From contig UQQZ01000001.1 of the NCBI GenBank assembly GCA_900543305.1, positions 4,083 to 68,082 of the forward strand: a stretch of 64,000 nt of DNA. The letters are read 5' to 3'. Under the pieces are notes generated by a model, which saw nothing but the letters and a program-made list of their open reading frames with translations, had not been told where the DNA came from and made no database searches. Source of the DNA: an uncultured Oscillospiraceae bacterium (GTDB lineage Bacteria > Bacillota > Clostridia > Oscillospirales > Acutalibacteraceae). The translations under genes were made by a program, and so were the position numbers. Positions 1 through 31,867 of the stretch are shown piece after piece; position 1 is the stretch's first letter; each line of letters opens with the position of its first letter.

Positions 1-120
1 ATAACGTGGGATGTTCCACTCCCATCACCCGCTCCATAAACAGTAGAGACAGGTTACAAAGAAGCAATATTCCCAGTATCAAGGTCAGCGCCACTTGCAC
101 TGTTTTCCCAATCACTTTCC

Positions 121-1224: not shown

Positions 1225-1416
1225 GTCTATTCCTCCCTTGTTTTGTGTGGTTCTGAAACTGGTTTTTGACCTTGTGCCTGCCCCCCACTGATCAGCGGGA
1301 GGCAAGGACAAAATCAAAACAGGGAATTTACCAAGAGACAACGCCCCAGCCAGCCACATGGCCGGGGCCTCCCTCTCGGTTATTTCGATCAAGAAATGGG
1401 TGTCATCAAACGTACT

Positions 1417-2118
1417 TTAGTCGATCTGGGTGACAGTGGCACTAGCGTCAATAGAAATGGTGGGAGCTGCACCTCTGGCTGCTTTATCCCCTAAATATGT
1501 ATCCTTGGTATCTTCTCCCTCAAAGGGCCACTCCCACTCTAAAACAAAGTATTTGTCTAATTCTTGATTAGGTTCAAACTTTCCAGATAATGTGAGCTCT
1601 TCTGTCAACACACGCTCAATTTCAGCCATTAATTCAGCCTGTGTTCCATATTTACTTCCATCAATCGTCCCTTGAGTAGCTCCATTAAATGTGAAAATCA
1701 ACGGGCAGTAAAATTCTGTTTCTACACTTTCTGGAGTTTCTCCATCTTCAAGAGGTTCCCCGTTAGGCTTAATATTCCATCCTTCCAAATCAATATTGAA
1801 ATCGATTGTGTACTCGCAAGCCACCTCGGGGGTTCCGGAGAAGGTCAGTTCATAGGGCTCTGGACTCTCTGTACCTGGTGCAACCACATATCCTCCCCCT
1901 GATTGTACCGTAAAAGAATCCTCTCCTATATCATAAACACTTGAAAAAATATCCCCTGACCACTCTGCAGTCACGCCCCACTTTGCTACCCGGGCAGAAT
2001 CTTCTCCTTTTCCTTCACTGACATACTTGGCAAACGTCCCTCCCACAAAGCAGGAAGAGATCAACGTGAGAACCAGCAAAACAGCTGCCAGCCGCATGAC
2101 TTTGTTTGTTTTTTTCAT
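1417..2118 (-). CDS. Secreted TasA/BsaA-like protein with a SipW-dependent-type signal peptide
   Basis: Signal peptide MKKTNKVMRLAAVLLVLTLISSCFVGGTFAKY resembles the SipW-cognate motif (GGTxAxF/Y). The gene lies directly downstream of a SipW-type peptidase. An APGTE motif is shared with ORF 121..1224. Confidence 0.65.
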   Translation of the reverse strand: MKKTNKVMRLAAVLLVLTLISSCFVGGTFAKYVSEGKGEDSARVAKWGVTAEWSGDIFSSVYDIGEDSFTVQSGGGYVVAPGTESPEPYELTFSGTPEVACEYTIDFNIDLEGWNIKPNGEPLEDGETPESVETEFYCPLIFTFNGATQGTIDGSKYGTQAELMAEIERVLTEELTLSGKFEPNQELDKYFVLEWEWPFEGEDTKDTYLGDKAARGAAPTISIDASATVTQID

Positions 2119-11516: not shown

Positions 11517-11717
11517 TTGAATTTCTCCTTGTAAAAGTGATCCGGTATTGTCCTCCAGGAGTTCTCCCAATAACGCCTGTCCAAGATCCCGTTGAGAAAA
11601 CGGCCCTTTTTTGAAACAAGGGGTGAAATCATTTGGCCAGCGTGGTATGATGATAATCATCTACTAGGAGCGGCTTGTGATAAACATACTGCTCAGAGAA
11701 AACTCTTGGGGGAGTGA

Positions 11718-12689
11718 ATGATTGTGATAGAAGTGGTATTTTCGGAAAATGCTCAAGGCAGTCTGAAACTGGCCCAGCATTTTGGTGTTGACAAATATCT
11801 TGGAGGCGCTGTTAGTGTTATTATAAGACACGCCGATGGGAGAGAAGCCACTGCAGCTGAACGGAAAGCTGCCCTAGAAAAAGCAAAGGCCAGGGAAAAA
11901 CACGAATGGGAAACTGCCATCCCCTTGGGGGGAAATCCACAAGATGTACTCTGTCTCAACGCCGCCTGGAGCATGGGAGACATTTCGGAGCTACAAATCG
12001 GAGAAGGCCGTAAAAATGCCCTGGAACAGCTCTATTCTTTCTGGCCCTCGGGCGAGGACATTCCCCAGAAAATTGAAGAGAGACTCTGGGCCAACCGGAA
12101 TACCCTCCAAACAGTATTGGATCGCTCTTCAAAAGGAGAGGCCATTCGGATCTGGTACAGCCACAGCCCTGAGGAATTGTGCGGCTTTACTTGGCTATTG
12201 ACGCAGCTCTCTTCCCTGAAAAGTCACGGGCCTATCTACAGCGTCCTGCTGCCCGACTGGGAATACGGGGAGGAAAACACCGTTGTCAGTTATAGGGATT
12301 GGGGAGAAATGTCTCCGGGAAAATGGGGCCATTTTCTTTCCCTGCAGCAGCAGGTCCAACCTGCTCTCCTGACCGCCTGCGCCATGGAATGGAAAAAACT
12401 CCAAAGGGAGAACGCCCCTTTACGGATTTTCCTCAACGGTTCCCTTCAAAGCGCTCCGGAAACCATTTACGACAGTTTTATCCGACAGGAACTGGAAGCC
12501 CAGCCCCAGGAGTTTTCCGAGGCCATGGCTATCGGCCAGATTCTGGGAAGGCATCCTCTGGGCATCGGCGCCGACTGGATCGCACTGCGAATCCAGCAAT
12601 GGATCCACCAGGGGAAGATGGAAGTCCTTTCCACTCCGGATCCGGATCAATTCCAGTATCAGCAAACCCTTCGGAAACTGGGATGGTAA
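11718..12689 (+). CDS. DUF1835/DUF3658-domain protein
   Basis: The N-terminus VVFSENAQGSLKLAQ and the IRIWYSHSPEELCGF pattern are typical of DUF1835. The C-terminal half is DUF3658-like. Confidence 0.6.
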   Translation: MIVIEVVFSENAQGSLKLAQHFGVDKYLGGAVSVIIRHADGREATAAERKAALEKAKAREKHEWETAIPLGGNPQDVLCLNAAWSMGDISELQIGEGRKNALEQLYSFWPSGEDIPQKIEERLWANRNTLQTVLDRSSKGEAIRIWYSHSPEELCGFTWLLTQLSSLKSHGPIYSVLLPDWEYGEENTVVSYRDWGEMSPGKWGHFLSLQQQVQPALLTACAMEWKKLQRENAPLRIFLNGSLQSAPETIYDSFIRQELEAQPQEFSEAMAIGQILGRHPLGIGADWIALRIQQWIHQGKMEVLSTPDPDQFQYQQTLRKLGW

Positions 12690-14177: not shown

Positions 14178-14218
14178 TAAAACGAGGTCCCGTAGTTAGC
14201 TGCATCTAACTACGGGAC
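14178..14218 (-). terminator. Rho-independent terminator of the trypco2/HExxH operon
   Basis: Perfect 13-bp inverted repeat GTCCCGTAGTTAG / CTAACTACGGGAC (14187..14199 and 14206..14218) with a 6-nt loop. It is followed on the minus strand by CTCGTTTTAG. Confidence 0.7.
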
Positions 14219-14270: not shown

Positions 14271-15698
14271 CTATTTCTTCTTTTTTGAGGGAACCAGAAC
14301 CATACACGGCAGTTTTTTGGAAATGTGCCTGAGTTTGCGATTAAACTGCTCACAACAGAAAGAAAGGTAATGATAGGAGGGCTGATCCAGGTCATTGGGA
14401 ATGGACACTTCTATCTGCCGATGGGATCCATTGCCTGCCTTCCCCATTACCAGTTGATGGTAGTACTCGTGGACATTCCGCAAGAAGAAATACTCCTCAC
14501 AGTTTGTTCGAAAGATGGAACGGGACCCATTCTGAAAGACGATATCTATCAGCTTTTGCGGCGTAAAAGATGCTGAAAGAAAATGGAATGACATCAGCCT
14601 GTCGTTCTGAAAAAGGCGCTGGGCATCCAGAAATGCCTTTTCTTTACAATTTGAGCTTACCTGTTTCCATGGCTTAAAAAAGGATCCCTGTCTTTGGAGC
14701 ATTCTGCTGTCTTCCCATGGAGACGACAGACCACACCACCGAACCAATTCCATTTGGTAGCGGCTGTAGTCTTCCAGATGTCGGGGAGGTCGAATTTTCT
14801 GGGTCATGACAATCATGGCGGTAAACCTTGTCATAGGATCAAACAGAGGATGACGATAAAAGGGAAGCATAGGCGCGTTCAAGGCCAAATCACAGATAGC
14901 GAAAAATCCCAGCTTAAAGGACATAAAGTCCTCGGGATTTTGGAGATCGAATTGATGAGTTTTCCAGTAAAGCTGTAAAGGAACCAGATAATTGGCTTTT
15001 TCCCTGGTCAGCTGCTGGGGCTTCATCATCGCACAAAACGCCTCGTCTGCAACAGAATCAAAAAAATACTGGGTGAGATGAGCTTGGCTCTCCAAAATGG
15101 AGGAAACATTGATTTGAAGGCCGTCGTTCATAAATGAAGCCGCTAAAAGCTGTTTGGCTATCTGTGGGTCCACCTCCGGGGATAAAAAATCAGCCCTTAG
15201 CTTCTTAGGAATATGGGAAAGCCTACTTAAAAAAAGGTCCAGCTCTCCATAATAATCCAGAAAACCATTGCCTTTCATGATTCGGCACAGGTATTCGGTC
15301 AGCTCATCAAAGGTTCCTGTCAATTGGATCCTGACAATTTCCCCCAGAGCCCAATCGTAATAATATGTATTTTCCTTTGGCAAACCGTTTCTTGCCATAA
15401 TTTGATGGACAACACCATAGGGATCCACCTTATCTTCAAGGCAGCAATTCACCAGGGATACCATCGCATTTCTTTGAAATGTTTCCACCAGGTTCATGTA
15501 ATAGCCAAAAATCGTGGTTGCGTACTGAATGAGATGGCAATGTTCATGGAGCAATGACCGCAATGGAGGGGACAGAATCCCTTCTGTTTCATGGAGCATA
15601 AAACTCTCGTTTAGTTCTTCTTTCGTGCAAGCTAGGTCTATCTGATAAACAAAGCTGTCAAAGGTTGACCGCACGGAATCGCCCACTTTAGGATCCAC
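14271..15698 (-). CDS. Uncharacterised protein of about 476 aa with a single HExxH (LLHEHCHLIQ) motif; putative metallopeptidase-like effector
   Basis: ORF 14271..15776 (TTG) trimmed to the GTG at 15698, which lies 9 nt after GGAGG. I recognise no family beyond the HExxH motif. The gene overlaps the trypco2 gene by 11 nt. Confidence 0.6.
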   Translation of the reverse strand: MDPKVGDSVRSTFDSFVYQIDLACTKEELNESFMLHETEGILSPPLRSLLHEHCHLIQYATTIFGYYMNLVETFQRNAMVSLVNCCLEDKVDPYGVVHQIMARNGLPKENTYYYDWALGEIVRIQLTGTFDELTEYLCRIMKGNGFLDYYGELDLFLSRLSHIPKKLRADFLSPEVDPQIAKQLLAASFMNDGLQINVSSILESQAHLTQYFFDSVADEAFCAMMKPQQLTREKANYLVPLQLYWKTHQFDLQNPEDFMSFKLGFFAICDLALNAPMLPFYRHPLFDPMTRFTAMIVMTQKIRPPRHLEDYSRYQMELVRWCGLSSPWEDSRMLQRQGSFFKPWKQVSSNCKEKAFLDAQRLFQNDRLMSFHFLSASFTPQKLIDIVFQNGSRSIFRTNCEEYFFLRNVHEYYHQLVMGKAGNGSHRQIEVSIPNDLDQPSYHYLSFCCEQFNRKLRHISKKLPCMVLVPSKKKK

Positions 15699-16044
15699 GA
15701 GGATCCCCCTCCATTTCGGGGAACCTTCCACTGGACCGCTGACTCCTGGCGGGCGAGAATAGATTATCTTCGTCAAAATTGGGCAGGCAGGTCACGTCAA
15801 ATTTCAGTTTGATGGTTTGGGATTTTTTGGAAACAGAGGAAAGGTCTGTTTCCCCATTGAAAAGAGGAATGCCAATCTTCAATTTTCCGCTTGCATCTTG
15901 TTGGATCACAGTGGTCAGTTCAATCTCCATACCCGAGGTCTGAAAGAGAATCGGAGCACCCTCTTGTTCTCTCCGGTCTTCGGACTGAATCAATTCCCGT
16001 TGTACGGACCGTAAAATCTCACTCAACGGCAGAAAAGTTTCCAT
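15688..16044 (-). CDS. Trypco2-family (trypsin co-occurring domain 2) small protein
   Basis: LSEILRSVQRELIQSE...APILFQTSGMEIELTTVIQQDASGKLKIGIPLFNGETDLSS...SQTIKLKF follows the trypco2 pattern: an N-terminal helix, F..xxxEhEh, a G-rich turn and a terminal hKLxF. SD GGAAAGGGGAAA lies upstream of the ATG at 16044. Confidence 0.7.
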   Translation of the reverse strand: METFLPLSEILRSVQRELIQSEDRREQEGAPILFQTSGMEIELTTVIQQDASGKLKIGIPLFNGETDLSSVSKKSQTIKLKFDVTCLPNFDEDNLFSPARSQRSSGRFPEMEGDPRGS

Positions 16045-16509
16045 GACTTGTTTCCCCTTTCCAATCCATTCTATCTCTTCCCCCTGCCCCAGCCAATTCC
16101 GCTTTCCTCACAAGATATACGGAAAAACATGAATCGGGGCAATTTAGAGAGATGTAGGTGTAAAACTTCCCGTTCGAACATCATCCGGGCTTTTTTCTAG
16201 TGGATCATCAATAAGGCATCAATTTTCGTATCTAACCGTTATATAGAATTTATTTGCTAAGAAAACTCTAGATATTAAATTCATATTAAATATAACATAA
16301 ATACCAAGCAATTGCAAACCATGCGAAGTGTCCCCTCGGACCGATATCGAACCACCGGAATGAAGCATGCCTTCAGCACTGCTGATTCTCTGGAAAGGCC
16401 TGATTCCTGTTCTCTCCAACTTCACGGTTTGCTGTATTGAATTTGTAACACAATATTCTTCATGGAATCACTTTTCCATATTTTTTCTCCACCAGATCCA
16501 TTTTCGATT

Positions 16510-17082
16510 TTAAGAATACCGGTCAATTTTCTGCTGGATTTCCTCTGAGGTAATTTCACGAGGAACATGATCCACAAACTCGGTGCCGTACCAGGTGGTA
16601 TAACCATCCCAGGTATAGGAATCCGGATCCCATCCCGAGTTGTACCCTTCTTTGGTCGACCTGGCAGAAAATTGGTAGCGGTCGGTCCACAAAGCTGTCA
16701 GGTGGAGTCGAATTCCGGGACGGTATCCCAGCTCCCAATTGTGCTCGTTTGGCCGCTCTTCTTCAAAAAGCTCAAATAGCTCCTGGATAAATTCCTCGTC
16801 CCGGACAATGGGCTGTAACTGGGAGAGAATCCCATAGGCGGTTTCTTCATCAAAACCAAATCGATATACGGTAATCGCCACCCCAGCCTCATAAGTAAAT
16901 TGACAGGTTACTACAGAAAGAGGATATTTGCTGCGAACCTTGGTTTCGAATTCTTTCATGCCGGAAAGGGTCAGGGGGCGGTACCAGATGCACCCCGAAA
17001 GGCTGACAGCCAAAAGCAGGGTCATTCCAAGCAACCAGGCTACCCGGAGAACGGTTCCTCTTCGCCGAAAACACTTTGTCAT
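16510..17082 (-). CDS. Lipoprotein of unknown function
   Basis: Trimmed to the ATG at 17082. Signal peptide plus lipobox: LLLAVSLSGC. No canonical terminator lies between it and the helicase gene 99 nt upstream. Confidence 0.65.
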   Translation of the reverse strand: MTKCFRRRGTVLRVAWLLGMTLLLAVSLSGCIWYRPLTLSGMKEFETKVRSKYPLSVVTCQFTYEAGVAITVYRFGFDEETAYGILSQLQPIVRDEEFIQELFELFEEERPNEHNWELGYRPGIRLHLTALWTDRYQFSARSTKEGYNSGWDPDSYTWDGYTTWYGTEFVDHVPREITSEEIQQKIDRYS

Positions 17083-17181: not shown

Positions 17182-19440
17182 TCAAACTGGAGGTCGCGCC
17201 GGCCCTGAAGGAATATCTATCCAGCTTTGTACCCGGTGCTTCATACCTTCCACATCCAGCACACCCAAGGCAAACCCCTTGCGTACCAGCTCTTCCGGCA
17301 CAAACTCATCATACTTCTCAAAAACAGGCACCTCTTTGGGGTACACCAGTTCCAAAGGGTCAAAATCTTTAGCGGCTTCTTCCGCCACAATCCGGTAGAA
17401 ATCCTCCTCGCCCACCTTCATGGTAAACTGAAGATAGTAAGGCCGGGCAGGGCTCATGCCTCTGAGCCCCAGCCTTTTTCCACAGCGAATTTTCAAAAAA
17501 CGCTCCAAAGCCAAAAAAGCGTAGCTTCCCAACCAGGGGAACAGGGCCCACATATTCCCTCCAAGATGCACCAGCGGGTGACCTTCCATTCCGGAATTTT
17601 GAAAACTGACTCGGGCATCCTCCAGCCGGCACACTGCATGCTTCATCAGGTAAGGATACTGTTTCTGCTCCTGCAATACCCTGTACATTCGTTCCAGGAT
17701 GTGGGTATGGATGTCTCCCGGCACATCCCCAAAGTATGCCGGAATATTGCCTTTTACCAGTGTGCAGTAGACCTCTCGTTTCTGGTGATCCACCTCATCC
17801 ACCGCCCAGACTCTGCCGGCAATGGCGATTTTATCCCCAACAGGCGGCGGCTTAACAATGGTCCCCAGCTCCTCGGAACCTGTGCGGACGGAATACTCGA
17901 TATTCTCCCGGAAAACCGCGTAAAACTTGTAGTTGTTCACAACCCGCTCTCCCGCAAGACCCACAATCAAACCACCATTTTCCGTCTGCGCAATGTGATC
18001 GATTTCCAGCAAGTGCCGAAGAAGGATTCTGTAATCTTCCTGGGTGATCCGATGGAAACAGGACAGACTGAGCACCCGAGAGGCAAGTTCTCCCGGTGTC
18101 ATCTCGCCGCAGGAAGCCAGTGTGCTCATGGTCTGGTGATACAGCAGACTAAAGGGCAGCCGACCTGTCCGGGGAGGTTCCACAAAGCGTTCCTCCAGAT
18201 ACAGCTGCACCAGGGCAATTCCCTGAATCAAATACCAGGGAATCATGTCAGGCAGCATGGCACGGGGTTCCGGGTGATCTTCCCGCATGACAAACCACAT
18301 TTCCGAAGGGTCGCCCCGCCTGCCGGTCCGGCCCATCCGCTGCAAAAAGCCGGATACCGTAAAAGGAGCGTCTATCTGAAAGGCCCGTTCCAGTCTGCCG
18401 ATGTCAATGCCCAACTCCAAGGTGGCGGTGGCACAGACGGACATCAGGGAATCGTCATCCTTCATCTCCACCTCCGCGCTTTCCCGATAAGAGGCGGAAA
18501 GGTTCCCATGATGGATGAGAAACCGGTCAGGCTCGTGGTTGACTTCACAATATTGTCTCAGGCTTTGACATACAGCTTCACACTCTTCCCGGGAATTGGT
18601 GAAGACAAGACATTTCTTGCCCCGGGTGTGCTCAAAAATGTATCCGATGCCCGGGTCCGCCGCTTTAGGAGCAGTGTCCCCCGGAGGTTCCAGCAGAGGA
18701 GCATGGGGCACATTCAGCTTACCCTCATCTGCCTGGGGGGCCGTATTAAAAAAATGCTCCATGGAAAGCCGCCACACCTCCCTGCCCCCTTCGCAGGCGG
18801 GAATCCTGGTTGGGCGGCTGCCCCCGGAGGCCAGAAACTTTCCCGCAGCCTCCGGATTGCCGATGGTGGCCGACAATCCAATCCGCCTGGGATCACATCC
18901 GGCGGTCCTGCACATCCGCTGAATCAGGCAAAAGGTCTGCATTCCCCGATCTCCTCGCAGCAGAGAGTGAATCTCATCGATGACCACAAACCGCAAGTCC
19001 CCAAACAAGGCGGCAATCTCCATATGCTTGTTGATCATCAAGGACTCCAGGGATTCCGGAGTGATCTGCAATATGCCCCGGGGTTTTTGCAGCAGTTTCC
19101 GCTTTTGAGACTGGGCCACGTCTCCATGCCAGCGGGTGACAGGGATCCCCGCCTCCTGACACAACTGGGAAAGCCTGCCAAACTGGTCGTTGATCAGGGC
19201 TTTCAACGGAGCGATATACAATACTCCCACGCTTTTGGGAGGATCCTCGTCCAGCAAAGTCAGGATGGGGAAAAAAGCTGCCTCGGTTTTTCCGGACGCC
19301 GTAGACGCCGTCAGAAGCACATTGTCATCGCTGCCGAAAATGGCCTCCCCGGCAGCGTTCTGCACCCCACGCAACGCCTGCCAACCGGAGCGGTAAATGT
19401 AATCCTGGATAAATGGCGCGTACCGATCATAGATGTTCAT
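17182..19440 (-). CDS. sngC: Lhr-like DEAD/DEAH-box (SF2) helicase; Shango SngC-like
   Basis: Motif I TASTASGKTEAAF, motif II VVIDEIHS, motif III LSATIGN, HHGNLS, TATLELGIDIG, and motif VI QRMGRTGRR. Its start overlaps the upstream stop (ATGA, 19437..19440). Confidence 0.85.
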   Translation of the reverse strand: MNIYDRYAPFIQDYIYRSGWQALRGVQNAAGEAIFGSDDNVLLTASTASGKTEAAFFPILTLLDEDPPKSVGVLYIAPLKALINDQFGRLSQLCQEAGIPVTRWHGDVAQSQKRKLLQKPRGILQITPESLESLMINKHMEIAALFGDLRFVVIDEIHSLLRGDRGMQTFCLIQRMCRTAGCDPRRIGLSATIGNPEAAGKFLASGGSRPTRIPACEGGREVWRLSMEHFFNTAPQADEGKLNVPHAPLLEPPGDTAPKAADPGIGYIFEHTRGKKCLVFTNSREECEAVCQSLRQYCEVNHEPDRFLIHHGNLSASYRESAEVEMKDDDSLMSVCATATLELGIDIGRLERAFQIDAPFTVSGFLQRMGRTGRRGDPSEMWFVMREDHPEPRAMLPDMIPWYLIQGIALVQLYLEERFVEPPRTGRLPFSLLYHQTMSTLASCGEMTPGELASRVLSLSCFHRITQEDYRILLRHLLEIDHIAQTENGGLIVGLAGERVVNNYKFYAVFRENIEYSVRTGSEELGTIVKPPPVGDKIAIAGRVWAVDEVDHQKREVYCTLVKGNIPAYFGDVPGDIHTHILERMYRVLQEQKQYPYLMKHAVCRLEDARVSFQNSGMEGHPLVHLGGNMWALFPWLGSYAFLALERFLKIRCGKRLGLRGMSPARPYYLQFTMKVGEEDFYRIVAEEAAKDFDPLELVYPKEVPVFEKYDEFVPEELVRKGFALGVLDVEGMKHRVQSWIDIPSGPARPPV

Positions 19441-20762
19441 AGGGTAAACTCCGCATATTTTTGATCTATCTCTTGGGAAACCGCCTGGGTGTAGGTGAAC
19501 TCATCCGATTGAAGCAGATCCTCCAAGGTCATGGAAGGGTTCTGATACAGCAGATCCAGCAGCTCGATAAAGTCCCGGATCACTTCCCGAGGGGTGATGT
19601 TCTGATCCGCCCCAATGCGGCTATACTCCAGCTTGATAAATCCTGCCAGCTCCTGAGTGGTAAGACTTCTCTGGTGGCCGTAAAGATCCTGGTGCATCTC
19701 CCAGAGCTTCTCACAAAGCACCGTCATCTCCTCGGGAGTCAGGGGATCCAGATGGATGACAGGGGCCAGAAGGTCCCGGGTTCCGGGCTTGGAGAATTTC
19801 CCCTCTGCCAAACGGGAACGAAGCGCTTCATAACTGTATACGCCCCGGCGCTTATCTTCAATGGCCTGGGGCGTGGCACCCATGAGAAATCCCAGGTATC
19901 GGGCTTTGCCCTGCAAGGTGTCGTTGTAGAGGGTGAGAAGCTTTTCATAGTTGTACTGACGGGTAATAGCGTTGGGAATCTTATATAGGTTTACCAGCTC
20001 ATCGATCATCACCATCATACCCGCATAACCGGCCAAGCGGAAAAACACTGCAAAGATCTTCAAATACTCATACCAGTTGTCATCGGTAATCAGCAGGTTG
20101 ACCCCCAGTTCTTCCTTCGCCTCCCGTTTGGTGGCATACTCGCCCCGAAACCAACGCACCACCTTCAGTTTTGTCTCATCGTCCCCGTCCACATAGGCGT
20201 GGTAATACAGGGAAAGAAGCCTGGCAAACTCAAAGCCGTGTACCAGTTCGCTCAAGGAGGCGATCACCTGATAAATTCTTCGGTCCACCTCCTTGGTCAG
20301 GGCCGGATCGCCCGGTTCCAAACCGGTCTCCTGAACAGCTTCCCCTTGAACACTGCTGATCCACCGGTCCAGCACCAAGGTCAACGCGCCGCCTTCCGGC
20401 TTCGTCTTGGTGGACAGGTTGCCGATCAGCTCCCGATAGGTGGCTAATCCCTGGCCTCGTGTTCCTTGCAGACGTCTTTCCGGAGACAGGTCTGCATCCG
20501 CCACCACAAAGCCCCGGTCCATCACATAGTTCCGAATGGTCTGGAGCAGAAAACTTTTACCGGAACCGTACCGCCCCACAATGAAACGGAAGGAGGCGCC
20601 CCCCTCCGCAATGATGTCCACATCGTGAAGCAGGGCCTCAATTTCACTTTTCCTGCCCACGGTGATATAGGGCAGGCCGATTCTGGGAACTACACCCCCT
20701 TTTAAGGAATTCAGTATAGTCTGGGCAATCCGCTTGGGTACCCTTTTCTTTTCTTCACTCAT
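19437..20762 (-). CDS. sngB: DUF2791/BrxC-BrxD-type P-loop ATPase; Shango SngB-like
   Basis: Trimmed to the ATG at 20762 (MSEEKKRVPK...). Walker A VGRYGSGKSF and Walker B MVMIDELV. It overlaps the upstream stop by 8 nt. Confidence 0.8.
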   Translation of the reverse strand: MSEEKKRVPKRIAQTILNSLKGGVVPRIGLPYITVGRKSEIEALLHDVDIIAEGGASFRFIVGRYGSGKSFLLQTIRNYVMDRGFVVADADLSPERRLQGTRGQGLATYRELIGNLSTKTKPEGGALTLVLDRWISSVQGEAVQETGLEPGDPALTKEVDRRIYQVIASLSELVHGFEFARLLSLYYHAYVDGDDETKLKVVRWFRGEYATKREAKEELGVNLLITDDNWYEYLKIFAVFFRLAGYAGMMVMIDELVNLYKIPNAITRQYNYEKLLTLYNDTLQGKARYLGFLMGATPQAIEDKRRGVYSYEALRSRLAEGKFSKPGTRDLLAPVIHLDPLTPEEMTVLCEKLWEMHQDLYGHQRSLTTQELAGFIKLEYSRIGADQNITPREVIRDFIELLDLLYQNPSMTLEDLLQSDEFTYTQAVSQEIDQKYAEFTL

Positions 20763-22665
20763 CCGATCTATCCTCCAGCATATCCAGAATGTCTTCCCTG
20801 TAATCCTCAACCACTGCAAGTGTACTGCCATCAAATTCCAACACGGTGTCTCCCAATCGGTCCAGAAACGCTTCGTTGATGGTATCTGCTACCACGGAAG
20901 CCATCAGGTGATGGGATCGGAGAATGGGCTCCGGTGACTCTCCTTGCAGAAGAGCCCGTAAGATCTGGGAATGTATCTGATCCAACCCGGGAACATCCGT
21001 GCCTTCTGAATGGGTCTCCTGGGAAACGACAGGGGAATTTTCCTGGGGCACAGGCAACTCCGGCCTGTCCTCCGGGATCTCTTGTCTTTCCTCTTCCGTG
21101 AGAAGGCTGTCCCGGGTAAGGACCGCATCCCGCCGAATCTGATCCAGATTGGAAAGGTCAATGACAATTTTGGGCTTGGCAGCTTCCAGCCGTTCCCGTT
21201 GGTCTTGTTCCACCACCGCTTCCACAAAAGGCGTCGCCCAAGCCTCCTCTGGTTTTTCCCGGAGATACCGTCCTGTTTTCAGATATTTTCTCAGCTGCCG
21301 GTCCGCCTCATGGAACAGGGCCTGAAACTTGTTTTTATTATAATACAGTTTGTTATACTCCTCTACCTGCCAGCTGCCCTGCTGACAACGATAAGTCCGG
21401 CAGGGATCGAGAACATACACTCCGTCCGGGTGCGGTTGTTCTTCCCAATAAACCGCGTTACCCAAGGGATACCAGGAAAGAAACTGCTTTTCCCCAAAAC
21501 AGACGGCAAATAGATTTTTGCCGTTTTCGTGGTAGTGTTTCCAGGCAGTTCGCCAAACCTGGGCAAATAGATGCTTCCCACCGGATTCTCCTTTTTGCAG
21601 CACAGGGGATTCCCCCAGCTTTTTCCCTTCAAAGGTGCAAATAGCGGAGAAAAGCTCCTGGTCCCCGGCCTCTTCAGGATGGGCCAATTTCTCTAGAGCA
21701 TCGTCCTGCCGTAAAAGTTCCGGCTCCACATATTGCCGGGCCAGTTCCGGGGAAACGCCTTGAACCACAGCAAATTCCAGCATCCAATTGCGAAGATTGC
21801 CCTCCATGGCCGGATCCCCGATTCCGGAATTCACAAACTTTTCCTGGAAATTCCGAAGTTTCTCCAAGCTGTCCTCCGGGGAGCTTGCTCCAATCCCGTT
21901 GAGAAGTTCATACACATAGAGATAGGCAAAGGATGCTGCAATGGGCGTGTATTTCCCTTTCCGAACCTGAGTTCTCCAGGTAAAATAACCCCGAAGCTGC
22001 CGGACATTTAAATCGTGATAGGTGGGGAAATACCGCTTGTAATCCCCGGTCCACGGTTCGTTGTCCTCGTAGTCCTCCATAAACTTGCCCTGTTTCCAGA
22101 AATTATAACATTTCTCCCGGAAAGACTCGTCCCCGTGTTCATACAGACGAAGCATTTCCTGAATCTTTCCCGGAACCCTCACACCGAGAGGGGGAAATGA
22201 TTTTTGAACCGGAGGAAAAGGTTCGCTGGGATAAATCACTGTCTGTTGAACAGGCGCATGCTGCAGTACAATCGTACAGCCTTCCTGGTCCTCAGAAGAA
22301 ATCGCTCGGTCAAACAGCTGGAATACCACCTGAGGATTTGTCCCATCCTCAAAAGTGATGCCCACCCATTTGGGGCCTTTCATGCGAAAGGGCTTTGACA
22401 AGAAGGGCTGGGGCTGTTCGTATAAAACCTGCTGGCCACATTTGAGGTCACACCGCTGGATTTCTTCGCCGCAATCCTCATCCCAGTGACGCATGAGTAG
22501 AGCCACCCATTTTCCCGTGTGTGGGTGTGTCAAAACGGAAAAGCCAGGAAAATCTGCCCATTTGTGCTGCTCCTGCATGTGGTATTTCTCTCGAACATAA
22601 GCTGCCAGTTCAGACAGTTCCAAGTTTCTCCCCCCTCCCAGGCCCTTCCCGCCTGCCTCCTGCAT
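20755..22665 (-). CDS. sngA: TerB-N and TerB-C domain protein with an extra N-terminal MmcQ/YjbR-like domain; Shango SngA-like
   Basis: TerB-N signature: YHDLNVRQLRGYFTWRTQVRKGKYTPIAASFAYLYVYELLNGIG. TerB-C-like C-terminus: IVIDLSNLDQIRRDAVLTRDSLLTEEE ... LMASVVADTINEAFLDRLGDTVLEFDG...VVEDYREDI. Confidence 0.8.
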   Translation of the reverse strand: MQEAGGKGLGGGRNLELSELAAYVREKYHMQEQHKWADFPGFSVLTHPHTGKWVALLMRHWDEDCGEEIQRCDLKCGQQVLYEQPQPFLSKPFRMKGPKWVGITFEDGTNPQVVFQLFDRAISSEDQEGCTIVLQHAPVQQTVIYPSEPFPPVQKSFPPLGVRVPGKIQEMLRLYEHGDESFREKCYNFWKQGKFMEDYEDNEPWTGDYKRYFPTYHDLNVRQLRGYFTWRTQVRKGKYTPIAASFAYLYVYELLNGIGASSPEDSLEKLRNFQEKFVNSGIGDPAMEGNLRNWMLEFAVVQGVSPELARQYVEPELLRQDDALEKLAHPEEAGDQELFSAICTFEGKKLGESPVLQKGESGGKHLFAQVWRTAWKHYHENGKNLFAVCFGEKQFLSWYPLGNAVYWEEQPHPDGVYVLDPCRTYRCQQGSWQVEEYNKLYYNKNKFQALFHEADRQLRKYLKTGRYLREKPEEAWATPFVEAVVEQDQRERLEAAKPKIVIDLSNLDQIRRDAVLTRDSLLTEEERQEIPEDRPELPVPQENSPVVSQETHSEGTDVPGLDQIHSQILRALLQGESPEPILRSHHLMASVVADTINEAFLDRLGDTVLEFDGSTLAVVEDYREDILDMLEDRSDE

Positions 22666-23396: not shown

Positions 23397-24803
23397 TTAC
23401 TCGACAACATATCCGTTTTTCCGGATAATGTCAACCACTTCGTCCACATACTTCTGGCAAGTTTCCTGCTCAGGCGCTTCGACCATAACCCGCAGGACAG
23501 GCTCTGTTCCGGATTCCCGGACCAAGATCCGGCCAGTGTCGCCCAGGGCTGCTGTCACCCGCTCTACCGCAGCCTGAACTTCCTTGTCTCCCCGAGCGGT
23601 TGCCTTATCCGTCACACGAACATTTTCCAGCACTTGAGGATAGATGGCCAGAGGCGCTGCCAGCTCGCTCATAGGCTTCTTCTTCGCCATCATCACTTCC
23701 ATCATCTTCAAAGAGGTGAGGATACCATCGCCGGTGCTGGCATACTTGGAGAAAATGATGTGTCCGCTCTGTTCCCCACCGATCCGGGCTCCGCTCTGCT
23801 GCATATACTCGTACACATACTTGTCGCCCACTTTTGTCTTAGCATAGTCGATGCCCAGCTCGTCAAAGGCCTTATACAGGCCGAAGTTGGACATGACAGT
23901 GGTCACCACCGTATTGGTCACCAGCTTGCCCCGCTCCTTCATATAGCGGCCATAAATATACAGAATGTGGTCGCCGGTAACTACATTGCCCTTTTCATCC
24001 ACACACAGGCAACGGTCCGCGTCACCGTCATAAGCAAAGCCAATATCCAGGCCCTTTTCCACCACGAACTTCTGCAAGCCCTCGATGTGGGTGGATCCAG
24101 CATTCAGGTTGATATTCAGGCCATTGGGTTCCGCATTGATCACATAGGTGTCCGCGCCCAGAGCGTCAAAAACAGCCTTGGCAATGTTCCAGCTGGAACC
24201 GTTGGCGCAGTCCAAGCCAACTTTTACGCCACGGAAAGAGTACATGCCCAGAGAGATCAGGTAACCGATATACCGGTTACGGCCAGAGACATAGTCCACG
24301 GTACAGCCGATTTTCTCCTTCTGAGCAAAGGGCAGCTCCGGCCACTCCTGACCGAAGGCCACCAGCTTGCCATCCAGATAGTCCTCTACCAAGTTGATGG
24401 TCTCCTCATCCATCTTCTCACCCTGGTCGTTGATCAGCTTGATGCCGTTATCATAGAAGGGGTTATGGCTGGCAGAGATCATGATACCGCAATCGAAATC
24501 GTCCACACGGGCAATATAGGCTACAGACGGCGTGGTGGTAACATGCAGCATATACGCATCCGCACCGGAGGCCACCAGACCAGCCACCAGAGCATACTCA
24601 AACATATAGCTGGACCGCCGGGTATCCTTGCCGATGACAATCCGGGCGGGACCTTCTTTAATCGGTCTGCCCTCTTCCCCGGCGCGGCTACGCTTCTCAT
24701 TGTAATACCAGCCCAAGAACCGGCCTACTTTGTAAGCATGGTCAGCAGTCAAATTGATATTGGCTTCCCCACGGAAACCGTCTGTTCCAAAATAACGTCC
24801 CAT
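23397..24803 (-). CDS. glmM: Phosphoglucosamine mutase
   Basis: Trimmed to the ATG at 24803 (CAGGAGG SD). MGRYFGTDGFRG and the active-site loop SASHNPFYDNGIK. Confidence 0.9.
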   Translation of the reverse strand: MGRYFGTDGFRGEANINLTADHAYKVGRFLGWYYNEKRSRAGEEGRPIKEGPARIVIGKDTRRSSYMFEYALVAGLVASGADAYMLHVTTTPSVAYIARVDDFDCGIMISASHNPFYDNGIKLINDQGEKMDEETINLVEDYLDGKLVAFGQEWPELPFAQKEKIGCTVDYVSGRNRYIGYLISLGMYSFRGVKVGLDCANGSSWNIAKAVFDALGADTYVINAEPNGLNINLNAGSTHIEGLQKFVVEKGLDIGFAYDGDADRCLCVDEKGNVVTGDHILYIYGRYMKERGKLVTNTVVTTVMSNFGLYKAFDELGIDYAKTKVGDKYVYEYMQQSGARIGGEQSGHIIFSKYASTGDGILTSLKMMEVMMAKKKPMSELAAPLAIYPQVLENVRVTDKATARGDKEVQAAVERVTAALGDTGRILVRESGTEPVLRVMVEAPEQETCQKYVDEVVDIIRKNGYVVE

Positions 24804-25034
24804 TGTTGGTGCCTCCTGTATCAATAAATATGATAGGGATGTTTAACTAATAAATTATACCACATACATTTTGCTCTGTCTACGGGATACGGTTATTGTC
24901 CGCCTCTGCAAACATCTACAAATGTATGACAAAAAACAAAGTTCGGTTACATTTTCTCGTAAAATGTATCCCCTCCGTTTCTCTGCTAAAGCCTGAGAAA
25001 CAATTCTTTGATTGTGAAATAATGCTAAGAACAG

Positions 25035-26270
25035 TTAATCTCTCTGGAACAGATCACGAGTATATACTTTTTCTTTCACATCGTCAAGACAGCTATCATA
25101 GCGGTTTGCAATAATCGCCTGTGCCTGCTCTTTGAAAGCAGCCAGATTATTTACCACTCTACTACCAAAGAAAGTCGTTCCATCTTCCAAAGTCGGCTCG
25201 TAAATAATAACCGTTGCTCCCTTAGCTTTGATACGCTTCATAACACCCTGTATGGAGGACTGCCGGAAGTTATCAGAATTTGCCTTCATGGTCAAACGAT
25301 ACACACCGACGATTACTTCTTTTTCCTTGCTGGCATCATAGGCGCTGTTTGCTTCATATCCACCGGCGATCTCCAGCACCCTATCTGCAATATAGTCTTT
25401 CCGTGTTCTGTTGCTCTCAACGATAGCGGACATCATGTTCTGCGGAACATCCGCATAGTTGGCAAGAAGCTGCTTGGTATCCTTCGGCAAACAGTAACCG
25501 CCATATCCAAAGCTTGGATTATTATAATGCGAACCAATGCGAGGGTCAAGGCAAACGCCATTGATAATGTCCTGCGTGCTTAGTCCCTTCATTTCAGCAT
25601 AGGTATCCAGTTCATTGAAGTAGGACACACGCAGCGCAAGATATGTATTAGCAAACAACTTGACCGCTTCTGCTTCGGAAAAACCCATAACCAGAGTGTC
25701 AATGTTTTCTTTGATAGCACCTTCCTGCAGAAGCTCTGCAAAGGTCTTTGCCGAAGTATTCAGTCTTTCGCTTCCATCAGTTGAAACGATAATTCTTGAC
25801 GGATACAAATTATCATACAGAGCCTTAGATTCACGCAGGAACTCCGGACTGAAGATAATATTCTCACTGCCCATCTTCTTACGGATGTTTGCTGTATAGC
25901 CTACCGGAACCGTGGACTTGATAACCATAATGGCATCCGGATTCACCTGCATAACCAGCTTAATAACAGCTTCTACCGCAGAAGTATCGAAATAGTTCTT
26001 CTTGCTGTCATAGTTGGTAGGTGCTGCGATCACAACAAACTCAGCATTTTTATATGCTGCTTCACCATCCAGTGTTGCGGTTAAATCCAGCTCTTTTTCA
26101 GCCAGATATTTCTCAATGTACTCATCCTGGATAGGAGACTTGCGACTATTGATTATCTCCACTTTTTCAGGAATAATGTCAACTGCCACAACATGATTGT
26201 GTTGTGCTAAAAGTGTTGCAATAGACAGACCGACATAACCAGTTCCTGCAACTGCAATTTTCTTGTTCAT
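25035..26270 (-). CDS. ugd: UDP-glucose 6-dehydrogenase
   Basis: [16 protein letters not shown] Rossmann N-terminus ... GGYCLPKD catalytic Cys motif. Confidence 0.9.
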
Positions 26271-26325
26271 CTTGTTGCTCTCCTTCTACAGTGTGGTGAT
26301 TACAAAACCTTCACACTGGTTGGTT

Positions 26326-27405
26326 CTATATCTCGTAAAACTCCTTATACCATTCTGCGAATCGACGCAGACCTGTTCTCAAATCGGTACTCGGCTTAAA
26401 CCCGAAATCACGCTCCAAATCGCTGGTATCTGCATAGGTAACCGGCACATCTCCCGGTTGCATCGGAACAAGCTCTTTATGTGCTTCAAAGTCATAATCC
26501 TCAGGCAGTACCTCTGCACGGATCAACTCCTGCTGCAGAATATCCACGAAATCCAACAGGTTTTCTGGCCGGTTATTGCCGATATTATAGACTGCATACG
26601 GAGGAACCGGCAGACCATCCTCTCCAATCTTTCTTTCCGGCGCTCCCTGCATCACACGCTTGACACCTTCCACAATGTCGTCCACATAGGTGAAATCACG
26701 CTTGCAGTTGCCATAGTTGAAAATTTGGATCGTCTCGCCCTTCAGCAGCTTATCGGTAAAACCAAAGTAAGCCATATCCGGACGTCCTGCAGGGCCATAA
26801 ACTGTAAAGAAACGCAATCCGGTAGACGGAATGTTGTAGAGCTTGCTGTAGGCATGAGCCAACAGCTCATTGGATTTCTTAGTTGCAGCATAGAGGGACA
26901 CCGGGTTGTCCACCTTATCCTCTGTGCTGTACGGCACTTTCTTGTTAGAACCGTAAACAGAGCTGGAAGAGGCATAAACCAAATGCTCTACACCTTTTGC
27001 ACCATTGTCATAGGAATGACGACAGGCTTCCAGAATGTTGTAGAAGCCAATCAGATTAGATTCTATGTATACATCCGGATTGGTGATGCTGTAACGCACA
27101 CCAGCCTGAGCCGCTAGGTTCACTACAATGTCCGGATTGTAGTCATGGAAGATGGAATCAATCAGCGATTTGTCTGCAATGTTTCCTTTTATAAAAGTCC
27201 ATGTAGAATCTGGGTGTTCCTCTGCACATCTCTGAATTTCAGACAGACGCCACTCTTTTATAGACACATCATAATAATCGTTCAAACTGTCGATTCCAAT
27301 AATTGTGAGCGGTGACTGCGTATTCAAAAGCTCTAAAACCAGATTGGAACCGATAAAACCAGCAGCTCCGGTTACTAAAATTGTTTTGCCAAATAATTTA
27401 ATCAT
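26326..27405 (-). CDS. NAD-dependent epimerase, UDP-glucuronate 4-epimerase type
   Basis: VTGAAGFIGSNL, YASSSSVYG and YAATKKSNE (YxxxK). Adjacent to ugd. ATG 27405 is preferred over GTG 27417. Confidence 0.8.
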   Translation of the reverse strand: MIKLFGKTILVTGAAGFIGSNLVLELLNTQSPLTIIGIDSLNDYYDVSIKEWRLSEIQRCAEEHPDSTWTFIKGNIADKSLIDSIFHDYNPDIVVNLAAQAGVRYSITNPDVYIESNLIGFYNILEACRHSYDNGAKGVEHLVYASSSSVYGSNKKVPYSTEDKVDNPVSLYAATKKSNELLAHAYSKLYNIPSTGLRFFTVYGPAGRPDMAYFGFTDKLLKGETIQIFNYGNCKRDFTYVDDIVEGVKRVMQGAPERKIGEDGLPVPPYAVYNIGNNRPENLLDFVDILQQELIRAEVLPEDYDFEAHKELVPMQPGDVPVTYADTSDLERDFGFKPSTDLRTGLRRFAEWYKEFYEI

Positions 27406-27824
27406 TTTTCTTTTCACCCCTACTATTTCTTACTTTAAAAATAATTCTATTATGGTGGAATGCAACAATAGCACCAAGAACATTCATAATCAGATCATTC
27501 GTTTCGAAACATCCTCACATCATACAATATTCGGATATTATTTTGGTTTTTCTTAGACGAACTGCATTTGAAAAGTCATCCGAAATTAAAAAAATATTGT
27601 TCCATAATTTAAGAACAACGTTTCCGAACACAAAACACTTCCAACTTTACTAATATTTCTGTTTCTGATGGTCTTGAAAAAATATAATATACAATACCAG
27701 CAAATATTACAAAGAAGCTCCACATCTACACAGAAAATGTACTTAAATCTGTATGCTCCTTCAGTATGCTCATCCCAACCGCAATGAATATCACTATGGC
27801 TAAAAACAGATAAACATACAACAT
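27398..27824 (-). pseudogene. Degraded VanZ-like gene (several frame changes and stops)
   Basis: GAGGAG SD plus the ATG at 27824 give MLYVYLFLAIVIFIAVG..., which stops after 32 codons. Other frames carry MWSFFVIFAGIVYYIF..., and a C-terminal ETNDLIMNVLGAIVAF that matches the VanZ C-terminal motif. Confidence 0.4.
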
Positions 27825-27854
27825 GACTATGCTCCTCAAATTCTACTTTTAAAT

Positions 27855-29060
27855 TTATATTCTTGATTGACGTTCCTGACGTACCTTTCGTCTTTTCCGT
27901 TCAACAATCCATGGAGCGATTTTCGTAAACAGTACTCTGATTTTCTGAGAATGTGATGTTCCCTTTCTATAATCTTTCATTATATCCAGAAAATCTTGTC
28001 CCTGATTTAATCGTTGAAAAAATTCTTCTCTTTTTTGATTTTCCTTTGTTGGCTCAATCAGATTATGGTTTTCTCTTACTGCTCGTTCACGATCAACTAA
28101 TGTCAACTCCATTATTTCCTGCATCTTCAAAATCAATGCATTTCCTTTTTCAGAATTAACTACGATTAGTGAACTACCTTTTTTGTCATCATATGAAGGA
28201 TTCACTGATTTACTTCCCCAGAAGTCACCAATTGTCAGATCCGCCGGACGTTTAATTTCTGAATTAGCATATTGACAAGAATAGCAAACAGGTCTGTAAA
28301 ACATTGCTCTCAAAAAACCAGACATATAGAAATCCTGACCCCAAGCCTGATGTTTCCACTGTTTGTCATTTCCAAAGGCTGTTCCTATTTCCCAATCACC
28401 CCAAAAGTAGCTTTTATCTCTAAAGGAAAACTTGCAAATATCAAAGCCTTCTTTTTTTTGGAGACTTCTTAAATAAGAGTCAAAAACTTTTTGGCTTGGA
28501 ACTCCATGGCAAATCAAATCTACTGTATATAACCTGTCTGGTTTATCGCCCAAATATGCATATAGACCTGATACCTGGCACGCTGTTCCACTAAACAGGA
28601 CGGTCTTTCCTTCATTTAAAAATCTTTTTACTTTTCCATATATATCACCAACATTACTTTGTAAGTACTTAGATTTTCTAAAAATATCTATTTCATCACC
28701 ATTTACACACCAACGATGATGCACTTTCAGTTCATCATCATAAGTTGCTCCACAAATGATTGCATCATCATCAAGAACATTACAAATAGCCGAAAATGCT
28801 CCGCCTGATGAACTTTTCATCAATATGGTTTCATCTTTTATTTTTCCACCCCAAAACTCTATTGCCCCTTGATTTACATAATCATTTCCGTTTTGAGGAC
28901 ATATTTTCATACAAATATCGCAATGAATACAAATATCATTTTGTATATCCGGATATAAAAATCCTTCTTCATCCGGTTTCATCTCAATTGCGTTTTGGGG
29001 ACACTTTGCTGCACAAGCTCCGCAACCTGTACATTCTTTTTTTTCTTTTAATACTAACAC
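27855..29060 (-). CDS. 4Fe-4S ferredoxin plus coenzyme F420 hydrogenase/dehydrogenase beta-subunit-like protein (cps-associated)
   Basis: CTGCGACAAKCP and CIHCDICMKICP clusters, followed by a FrhB/FdhB-like C-terminal part. This is the usual partner of polysaccharide pyruvyl transferases. Confidence 0.75.
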   Translation of the reverse strand: MLVLKEKKECTGCGACAAKCPQNAIEMKPDEEGFLYPDIQNDICIHCDICMKICPQNGNDYVNQGAIEFWGGKIKDETILMKSSSGGAFSAICNVLDDDAIICGATYDDELKVHHRWCVNGDEIDIFRKSKYLQSNVGDIYGKVKRFLNEGKTVLFSGTACQVSGLYAYLGDKPDRLYTVDLICHGVPSQKVFDSYLRSLQKKEGFDICKFSFRDKSYFWGDWEIGTAFGNDKQWKHQAWGQDFYMSGFLRAMFYRPVCYSCQYANSEIKRPADLTIGDFWGSKSVNPSYDDKKGSSLIVVNSEKGNALILKMQEIMELTLVDRERAVRENHNLIEPTKENQKREEFFQRLNQGQDFLDIMKDYRKGTSHSQKIRVLFTKIAPWIVERKRRKVRQERQSRI

Positions 29061-29067
29061 TTCATAA

Positions 29068-30030
29068 TCACCGCCTAAGCTTCTTCTTCAAATTTCTCCA
29101 TTTTAATTGGAAATACTGTGGATAAATTAGCTTGTCTTTTGTATATCTATTAACTAATTCTTTTGTAATTTCACCCTCAAACGGCATTATCCTATTAGGA
29201 ATAACCAAAAAGGAATCACATTCTGCAATATCTTCAAGCTGAATATTTCTTTTTTGGAAATGAAAATAGCGAAACTCCTCTACCACTAAAGCATCAGCAT
29301 TATTCAGCGCATATCGGTATAATTTTCCATCATTCCAATAGAATATTTGCTTAATAATATTCTCTGTTTTTACACTCCTATTCCTTTTACTCGCGGAACC
29401 ATAGTCATATAATGATCTCCTAAATAAAAATGAATATGGATTTATATCCGCAATTTTATAATCAAAATATGTATTTATGCCACTTTTTTCAGCAATCAAA
29501 TTTATGTTTAACCCATCCGAAGATTCATCAAATATATGATTTTCTGCATCCGCTAATATCTTCCAATATGTTTCCGGAAAATCAACTTGCTTCATAAACA
29601 ATCTGTTCATCTCATAATTATTCTTGAATAAAGTCATATGTCCATGGACAAATAATTTATCATAACCGGCTTCAATTGGAATACATCTACTCAGATCTCC
29701 AAGCACAATATCAATGTCACAATATCCCCAATACAGATATTCTTTTATTTCATCTTCAAATATGTACCCATATGTTGGCTTGAAATCACATAATTTTCTT
29801 GGCGTTTTTAATCCTAAGGTGAATGAGAACTTTTTTTGAGCTTTTTCCACCAGCTCAGCAAAAGACATAAATACTATTTTGATGTTCTCAGATATAGATG
29901 TCACTGTATTATCGTCTGTAATTACCCAGAAATCATACTCCGAATTTGCTTTTGCGGTTTTTGACCACACAGAAAAATAATGTGGTAATTTCCCAAAATA
30001 CGGAATAAGAAAGACTGCTTTTTTCATCAC
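29068..30030 (-). CDS. Hypothetical cps-locus protein, possibly glycosyltransferase-like
   Basis: Long AT-rich ORF in operon context. The N-terminus KKAVFLIPYFGKLPHYFSVW recurs in polysaccharide loci. I cannot name the function. Confidence 0.55.
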   Translation of the reverse strand: MMKKAVFLIPYFGKLPHYFSVWSKTAKANSEYDFWVITDDNTVTSISENIKIVFMSFAELVEKAQKKFSFTLGLKTPRKLCDFKPTYGYIFEDEIKEYLYWGYCDIDIVLGDLSRCIPIEAGYDKLFVHGHMTLFKNNYEMNRLFMKQVDFPETYWKILADAENHIFDESSDGLNINLIAEKSGINTYFDYKIADINPYSFLFRRSLYDYGSASKRNRSVKTENIIKQIFYWNDGKLYRYALNNADALVVEEFRYFHFQKRNIQLEDIAECDSFLVIPNRIMPFEGEITKELVNRYTKDKLIYPQYFQLKWRNLKKKLRR

Positions 30031-30038
30031 TATACCTC

Positions 30039-31784: not shown

Positions 31785-31867
31785 AACTAAATCTCCTCGC
31801 ATTAAGGTTACCCTTTTCCCAGAAAACCTTTTTATTTTTCTCTTGACACATCGCCACATTTCTATCA

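Follow-up and report, generated by a model that had tools for sequence, protein, structure and literature searches.

A two-gene cassette of a Trypco2/Pepco protein and an unclassified HExxH protein as a candidate protease-effector module in an uncultured Oscillospiraceae bacterium

The names Trypco1 and Trypco2 go back to Kaur et al. 2020 (PMC7159879), where they denote small genes found together with those for trypsin-like peptidases in the vWA-MoxR conflict systems. Trypco2 was later renamed Pepco by Evans et al. 2025 (bioRxiv 10.1101/2025.11.14.688446), who characterised SsPepco, a protein of 117 residues from Streptomyces subrutilus that is encoded directly upstream of the trypsin-domain Avs4 (SsAvs4). 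According to that work, SsPepco is a denaturation-resistant 9-10-mer beta-barrel that becomes a membrane-permeabilising toxin once the protease removes a charged, Pro-rich C-terminal tail of about 20 residues, with the cut falling after Ile97; full-length SsPepco is non-toxic alone, while truncated Pepco alone kills E. coli. Pepco genes directly precede those of their proteases, which are given there as serine or cysteine proteases, with metalloprotease, metallopeptidase and HExxH unmentioned. Here we analyse a Trypco2/Pepco gene that is coupled to a gene for a protein of 475 residues carrying an HExxH motif. The pair lies on the minus strand at positions 14271 to 16044 of a stretch of 64,000 nucleotides (nt) from an uncultured Oscillospiraceae bacterium (GCA_900543305.1, contig UQQZ01000001.1, positions 4,083 to 68,082), which as a whole is called the window below.

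The window pair is like SsPepco-SsAvs4 in that a Pepco of 117-118 residues, with an amphipathic N-terminal helix and a charged tail, is encoded upstream of a larger protein with a hydrolase motif, and it is like it also in the predicted logic, with the removal of the tail licensing the pore. By contrast, the window partner has neither a trypsin nor a caspase domain and neither a STAND nor another recognisable sensor domain; its HExxH family is unclassified and without a fold relative, and the pair forms a bare two-gene unit. With the Trypco-trypsin pairs of the vWA-MoxR (VMAP) systems the pair shares a small separate gene of Pfam family PF19631 beside a gene of peptidase type, while vWA, MoxR and VMAP components and a trypsin are all absent at the window cassette. 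Kaur et al. (PMC7159879) also described a separate pairing of a zincin metallopeptidase with a small FxSxx-COOH precursor, without a link to Trypco2, the logic of which is analogous to that of the window pair. For the Trypco2/Pepco-HExxH pairing itself, no description was found in the searchable literature or in PADLOC-DB v2, which agrees with the suggestion of a preliminary description of this DNA that the replacement of the trypsin by a metallopeptidase-like partner is an undescribed variant. In the bacterial gasdermin-protease systems, a C-terminal segment keeps the pore-forming effector inactive until a neighbouring protease removes the segment; the predicted logic of the window pair is like this one, whereas there is no relation in effector fold or in protease classes.

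We propose that the cassette is a stand-alone Pepco-type protease-effector module, probably for suicide or abortive-infection defence, with the HExxH protein as the licensing enzyme, and we give this reading a probability of roughly 55%. In the model, the Pepco of 118 residues would be a latent death effector. By homology it would form an oligomeric beta-barrel that has an amphipathic helix at its N-terminus, and the charged tail at its C-terminus would keep it harmless. The HExxH protein would stand in for the trypsin- or caspase-type protease that accompanies other Pepco genes. A presumed infection-linked signal would activate it, and the activated enzyme would remove the tail of Pepco, licensing the pore and bringing about the death of the cell. 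The data below show the Trypco2 membership, the homology to SsPepco, the invariance of HExxH and E203, the near-obligate adjacency of the two families in distant lineages, and the lack of another conserved neighbour or of a further protease; we infer the peptidase activity, for which the grounds are a motif and the genomic association, as well as the metal, Pepco as the substrate, the cut site, the trigger and the defence role. The features of the locus to which the argument refers are as follows.

15688..16044, minus strand: Trypco2/Pepco gene (118 residues), predicted latent pore-forming effector from the match to Pfam PF19631 and the homology to SsPepco.
14271..15698, minus strand: HExxH-family gene (475 residues), its product predicted to process the Pepco tail in a metal-dependent way, as activator and possibly also as sensor.
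15688..15712, minus strand: translational-coupling junction, with GGAGG at 15712..15708, the GTG start at 15698..15696 and the Trypco2 stop codon at 15690..15688.
15534..15548, minus strand: HEHCH codons H51-E52-H53-C54-H55, the HExxH motif, on the predicted helix 44-61.
15090..15092, minus strand: codon of E203, an invariant Glu of the [ILV][LF]E[SN]xAxxxE motif on the predicted helix 198-209, a candidate third metal ligand.
15691..15780, minus strand: residues 89-118 of the Trypco2 protein, its C-terminal tail and predicted substrate for processing, including the L98 region and GRFPEMEGD.
15720..15718, minus strand: codon of the invariant Pro109 within GRFPEMEGD, from the alignment of the partner Trypco2 proteins.
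14187..14218, minus strand: hairpin of 13 bp, candidate intrinsic terminator, 52 nt past the stop codon of the HExxH gene.
16068..16142, minus strand: candidate promoters TTGCCC-17-TATATC (16142..16114) and TTGGCT-17-TAGAAT (16096..16068).

Both open reading frames (ORFs) are found on the minus strand where the preliminary description had placed them. They are genuine coding genes, because in a copy on another contig with 96-97% protein identity the large gene has a ratio of nonsynonymous to synonymous polymorphism (pN/pS) of 0.32 and the Trypco2 gene one of 0.37, with few substitutions behind these values, and because both proteins have distant homologues. The locus is also present on other metagenome contigs (L001-L003), and the clusters of the two proteins at 90% identity hold 22 and 10 members (NCBI, ENA and Logan contigs, up to 230 kb). 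The large protein had been put at about 476 residues; counted from the GTG at 15698, a start that was also picked by gene callers on two independent contigs, it has 475, and a second possible GTG start lies 33 nt further upstream. The overlap of 11 nt between the two genes that had been described is read directly in the sequence as GTGGATCCTAA (15698..15688), as is the Shine-Dalgarno sequence GGAGG within the 3' end of the Trypco2 gene, which ends 9 nt ahead of the GTG start of the HExxH gene. The motif LLHEHCHLIQ is present in the large protein as well, with HEHCH at 15548..15534.

The assignment of the product of 118 residues to Trypco2, which had been made from its pattern, holds on a profile search: Pfam PF19631 matches with E=7e-11 and 42.7 bits, above the curated cut-off of 24.2, over residues 6-82 and 75 of the 78 profile positions. 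To SsPepco, the sequence of which was taken from the supplement of Evans et al. 2025, the protein shows 26% identity (BLASTP E=3e-5), and hhalign, given a profile built from the partner Trypco2 proteins, aligns it to SsPepco over 104 columns with a probability of 83%. An N-terminal amphipathic helix, LSEILRSVQRELIQSEDR, is seen in the window protein, the helical hydrophobic moment of residues 7-24 being 1.63 on the Kyte-Doolittle scale. Of the final 20 residues 35% are charged and 10% are Pro, compared with about 40% and about 20%, respectively, in Pepco tails.

The tails of the partner Trypco2 proteins were aligned, with 8 and later 17 proteins, and across 16 lineages two elements are shared. 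One is a hydrophobic residue (L, F or I) about 10-12 residues beyond the last strand; the other, close to the end of the protein, is the motif [GS]R[FY]xP[R]x[ED], in which Pro does not vary and corresponds to P109 in GRFPEMEGD of the window protein. In the hhalign alignment L98 of the window protein is paired with the cut-site residue I97 of SsPepco, while BLASTP instead pairs PAR-S with PAR-I. Note also that a P-R-x-D element is found in the tail of SsPepco too, so that the terminal motif may be a general feature of Pepco and not one specific to the partner. The conserved tail motifs give predictions of the cut site that can be tested directly.

The large protein, by contrast with its small partner, fits no known family, as had been noted from its sequence: it has no match in Pfam, NCBIfam, PADLOC, PHROGs or the PDB sequences, its N-terminal fragments give no useful family match at E<=10, and neither cassette protein matches a family of PADLOC-DB v2 at E<=1. 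A word-indexed homologue search returned the window protein itself only, and three proteins when the family profile was used. An exhaustive HMMER scan, which covered 1.84 billion representatives, gave 33 relatives at E<=1e-3, of which ten also pass E<=1e-10; most of the 33 have 470-500 residues and align over most of their length. Among the matches P0012, a protein of 1952 residues with 15 matched stretches, was rejected as a tandem-repeat artefact. About 30 real homologues are left, corresponding approximately to clusters at 50% identity. Among the PDB sequences nothing meaningful was found, either with a profile of the complete family or with one of its first 135 residues, and RAD24 and a cephalosporin deacetylase were discarded as chance matches. 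In Pfam and NCBIfam, too, the 27 members gave chance or borderline matches at most, the only notable one being to an unrelated HExxH lipoprotein family of NCBIfam (E=0.06). Judged from these homologues, the large protein is a member of a real, rare and unclassified family.

In the alignment of 27 homologues, which are 17-35% identical to the window protein, only six columns are invariant, namely H51, E52, H55, G65, E203 and P279, with Q58, T62, W116, E210, Y237, L273, P276, R291 and Y311 near-invariant. The HExxH motif, the only recognisable feature that the preliminary description had pointed to, is thus conserved in 27/27 aligned proteins, and HExxHxx[Q/H] is found in every related locus. 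The signature of the family can be written as [RK][TS]x[LF]HExxHxxQ, followed 150-180 residues on by [ILV][LF]E[SN]xAxxxE, in which the window protein has Q in place of the final Glu.

The comparison of gene neighbourhoods was made with contigs of eight diverse family members and with sub-alignment scans of genome and metagenome collections, and the resulting 29 loci fall into 19 lineage groups, the GC content of which runs from 0.40 to 0.75. By a local hmmsearch with the Trypco2 profile, 16 of the 19 groups have a Trypco2 ORF right upstream of the HExxH gene and in the same orientation. In L013 the contig has only 150 nt left upstream, which leaves 18 testable groups, and the expectation that the two genes would be conserved neighbours is borne out in 16/18 lineages. 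In the loci with called genes the junctions range from an overlap of 11 nt, which L009 shares with the window, to a gap of 61 nt, and such tight junctions fit co-expression of the two genes. An all-against-all clustering of the flanking ORFs returned the Trypco2 and HExxH families only as recurrent ones. As no third gene recurs, the cassette is an autonomous two-gene module, and it is patchily distributed. The self-containment that had been ascribed to the cassette is therefore backed by its recurrence in unrelated contexts, but not by the weak promoter discussed below.

Based on these data, the HExxH protein is the most economical candidate for the licensing enzyme, because Pepco needs a protease, because the HExxH protein is its sole conserved neighbour, and because the flanks of the cassette in the window, over about 8 kb each, hold no gene for a serine or cysteine protease. 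The HExxH protein would probably also be the sensor. For a defence role, a further point in favour is the Shango system that adjoins the pair in the window.

What kind of enzyme this could be was considered with a structure model of the large protein. A single-sequence AlphaFold2 model was useless, with a predicted local distance difference test (pLDDT) of 40, and the alignment of 27 sequences was used instead, giving a model with a mean pLDDT of 83.2 and a predicted template modelling score of 0.88. The model is a compact, mainly alpha-helical body, in which an N-terminal beta-hairpin (12-14, 19-21) and a helix (26-39) precede the HExxH helix (44-61); then comes a long helical region including the helix 198-209 with E203, and finally a C-terminal alpha/beta unit (about 385-470). 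The order of hairpin, helix and HExxH helix together with a Glu on a later helix is compatible with a minimal zincin core, with E203 as the candidate third metal ligand. The modelled protein is thus like the gluzincins in having an invariant HExxH on a predicted helix that is preceded by a beta-hairpin and a helix, and a Glu on a later helix, and it is unlike them in having no profile or fold match, a Glu about 150 residues on, and both an all-alpha body and a C-terminal alpha/beta unit that lack a counterpart. As profile and fold matches are lacking, membership of a known peptidase clan is not established. That the protein founds a hitherto unrecognised group of metal-dependent peptidases, the fold of which may also be new, which licenses Pepco pores and combines sensor and protease in one, is a tentative proposal, to which we would give somewhat less than an even chance.

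A number of points weigh against the reading of the cassette as a Pepco module licensed by the HExxH protein. None of the 27 relatives of the large protein has a profile match to a known peptidase in Pfam, NCBIfam, PADLOC, PHROGs or the PDB sequences, and Foldseek searches with the model gave no relative, the best hit having E=0.25 and a template modelling (TM) score of about 0.1 in the PDB (entries to April 2026) and E=0.2 in BFVD, with TM<0.16 in both. E203 follows the HExxH motif at about 150 residues, which to our knowledge is a larger spacing than in the gluzincins. The protein has no recognisable sensor domain in the Pfam scan or in the structure model. The Ile that is reported as conserved ahead of the cut site in Pepcos associated with serine proteases is not clearly present in the window Pepco, and the two alignment registers given above conflict. 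Two family members, in L014 and L029, have no Trypco2 neighbour. Moreover, most of the related contigs are short and several of the contexts are metabolic or concerned with polysaccharides, and enrichment in defence islands is not demonstrated. Finally, not every HExxH protein is a peptidase, the alpha-ketoglutarate-dependent HExxH oxygenases being one exception.

This last point leads to the alternative that survives best, although we still regard it as unlikely, namely that the HExxH protein is no Zn peptidase but resembles these non-heme Fe/alpha-ketoglutarate-dependent oxygenases and would hydroxylate the tail of Pepco or cut its end off oxidatively, which would leave the logic of the module unchanged. 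The enzymes in question have a fold reminiscent of the zincins, used to carry a metallopeptidase annotation and have small partner peptides as their substrates; two of them, PflC and PosC, oxidatively remove a conserved C-terminal tetrapeptide, and hydrolysis with several metals is also possible (PMC12636437). Like the window protein, the enzymes of this group (IPR026337; ChlH, BpmH, PflC/PosC) are encoded beside a small protein, in their case the substrate, and some of them cut off a conserved C-terminal peptide, which is like the predicted processing of the tail. A motif at the very end of the chain is conserved in the partner Trypco2 proteins. The near-invariant R291, Y237 and Y311 could bind a co-substrate. 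On the other hand, the 27 members give no match at E<=0.1 to an alpha-ketoglutarate HExxH model of NCBIfam, where the presence of TIGR04267 in the release was not checked, and Foldseek against the PDB returned no hit. The surroundings also differ, as no radical S-adenosylmethionine, MNIO or transporter genes lie near the cassette and as the partner is a pore toxin and not a precursor of a ribosomally synthesised and post-translationally modified peptide; and the characterised activators of Pepco are all hydrolytic proteases (bioRxiv 10.1101/2025.11.14.688446).

A second alternative, which we consider improbable, retains the pairing and inverts its sense: the HExxH protein would be a guard or negative regulator that binds Pepco, degrades it all the time or trims it into an inactive form, and toxicity would follow upon its inhibition by a phage or its loss. 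The tight coupling and the obligate co-occurrence of the genes would fit a toxin-antitoxin pair equally well, and a large protein without a recognisable sensor domain would fit a guard. By contrast, full-length SsPepco is harmless alone and kills after cleavage (bioRxiv 10.1101/2025.11.14.688446), so that no antidote is needed, which disfavours the guard. Moreover, in the known systems the neighbouring protease is the activator, and the order of the genes in the window, with the small one first, matches that of SsPepco-SsAvs4.

It is also conceivable, although in our estimate distinctly unlikely, that the pair is not immune at all, and that a metalloenzyme and a small membrane-active protein serve envelope physiology, stress lysis or export, the presence of Shango nearby being coincidental. 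Here the contexts are pertinent: polysaccharide or glycoside-hydrolase clusters surround the cassette in several related loci, as in L010 and L005, and neither gene matches PADLOC. Two scans of viral contigs returned no relatives of the HExxH family, and a tblastn search of PLSDB with two family members returned no match on plasmids. Set against this, Trypco2/Pepco has so far been met and tested only in conflict and defence systems, and the patchy distribution of the pair across phyla (GC 40-75%) together with its varying contexts is typical of mobile defence genes; the cassette adjoins Shango in the window and is near an RloB/AAA_21 pair in L004.

The version of the preliminary description, in which a Trypco2 adaptor recruits or regulates a toxic HExxH effector, drew on the earlier comparative genomics of Trypco2 as a trypsin-co-occurring or effector-associated domain and is now very improbable, as the experiments on Pepco reverse the two roles, Pepco itself being the pore-forming toxin that in truncated form kills E. 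coli alone (bioRxiv 10.1101/2025.11.14.688446).

As to the transcription of the cassette, the hairpin of 13 bp past the HExxH gene (14218..14187) that had been noted is real and has a free energy of -24.1 kcal/mol (z=-6.0 with respect to shuffled sequences). As a candidate terminator it has a weak U-tract, a mere UUUU with CUCG between it and the stem. The promoter that had been assigned to the pair stands on less firm ground. The sequence TTGCCC-17-TATATC exists, but it agrees with the consensus at just 8/12 positions and is absent from the list of a promoter scan, while TTGGCT-17-TAGAAT agrees at 9/12. Both candidates sit in the spacer of 465 nt behind an upstream lipoprotein-like gene, and as the region abounds in promoter-like sites, with 10 compared with 4.2+/-2.2 by chance, the evidence for an own promoter is weak. 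A search of Rfam found no structured RNA in the cassette region.

Immediately upstream of the cassette lies a Shango operon at 17182..22665 on the minus strand. It had been called Shango-like, and the PADLOC matches show it to be a complete and genuine Shango system with the following genes.

17182..19440, minus strand: SngC, a DEAD/Lhr-like helicase (PADLOC E=2.8e-280).
19437..20834, minus strand: SngB, a BrxC/D-type ATPase with the BrxC_BrxD Pfam domain (PADLOC E=8.7e-190).
20755..22665, minus strand: SngA, with TerB_N/TerB_C domains (PADLOC E=1e-82).

In the mechanical list of ORFs SngA and SngB overlap by 80 nt, the PADLOC match of SngB begins at residue 29, and the first TTG is probably not the true start of SngB. 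The list also contains an ORF of 745 residues on the plus strand (17227..19464) antisense to SngC, with similar long antisense ORFs in loci of high GC content; these were rejected as genes, being shadow ORFs of the mechanical listing. The idea that the cassette is an accessory of Shango was likewise rejected, the Shango genes being absent from all other loci; since Shango is found beside the pair in this lineage alone, the proximity is not a property of the family.

Between SngC and the Trypco2 gene lies a gene for a protein of 190 residues with a lipoprotein-type signal, LLLAVSLSGC (16510..17082, minus strand). It has no real family match and is kept in L001 and L003, and as it is absent beside the cassette in all other lineages it was not accepted as part of the module. 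Downstream of the cassette, on the opposite strand, a DUF1835/DUF3658 protein is encoded at 11718..12689 (plus strand) and is kept in L001 and L002, with genes for a flavodoxin and a carboxymuconolactone decarboxylase lying between it and the cassette. Polysaccharide-biosynthesis clusters adjoin the cassette both in the window (23397..33427, minus strand) and in the unrelated L010 (129..17479, with family member P0014); they comprise PGM/PMM, UDP-glucose dehydrogenase, epimerases, a pyruvyl transferase and glycosyltransferases, and their position beside the cassette may be a coincidence or may reflect a variable region preferred for insertion.

Other related loci show additions or substitutions around the pair. 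In L025, a metagenome contig of 11.9 kb, the cassette (42..2038) lies between a ParA-like and a replication-initiator-like ORF, which suggests that it is carried on a plasmid there. A TPR-repeat protein of 276 residues is encoded 3' of the pair in L004 from Anaerocolumna xylanovorans (11518..12348) and in the related L005 (11523..12353), and it may be an added sensor or adaptor. In L004 the AAA_21 and RloB pair lies two genes upstream of the cassette. In L014 (5341..8263, family member P0030), which has no Trypco2 gene upstream, a gene in divergent orientation lies 520 nt away; it encodes a protein of 315 residues, with hydrophobic segments and a long coiled-coil-like tail rich in Ala, Gln and Lys, which might be an alternative substrate.

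Death effectors that are licensed by proteases, among them gasdermins, MBL nucleases, EACC1 and Pepco, are an emerging general principle of prokaryotic immunity, and every characterised activator of Pepco is a serine or cysteine protease that is fused to a large sensor. If the large protein is indeed such a metal-dependent peptidase, the HExxH module would add a third catalytic class, the metallo one, to the protease-effector modules, and a protein of about 480 residues would be sensor and protease together in a minimal two-gene system of abortive infection. If it is confirmed, there would be a new protein family of about 30 clusters at 50% identity, with no model in Pfam, NCBIfam or PADLOC and no fold relative in the PDB, the profile of which would let defence-annotation pipelines find such loci, and the pair would provide a minimal two-protein system for studying how such a protease is held inactive and what it senses.

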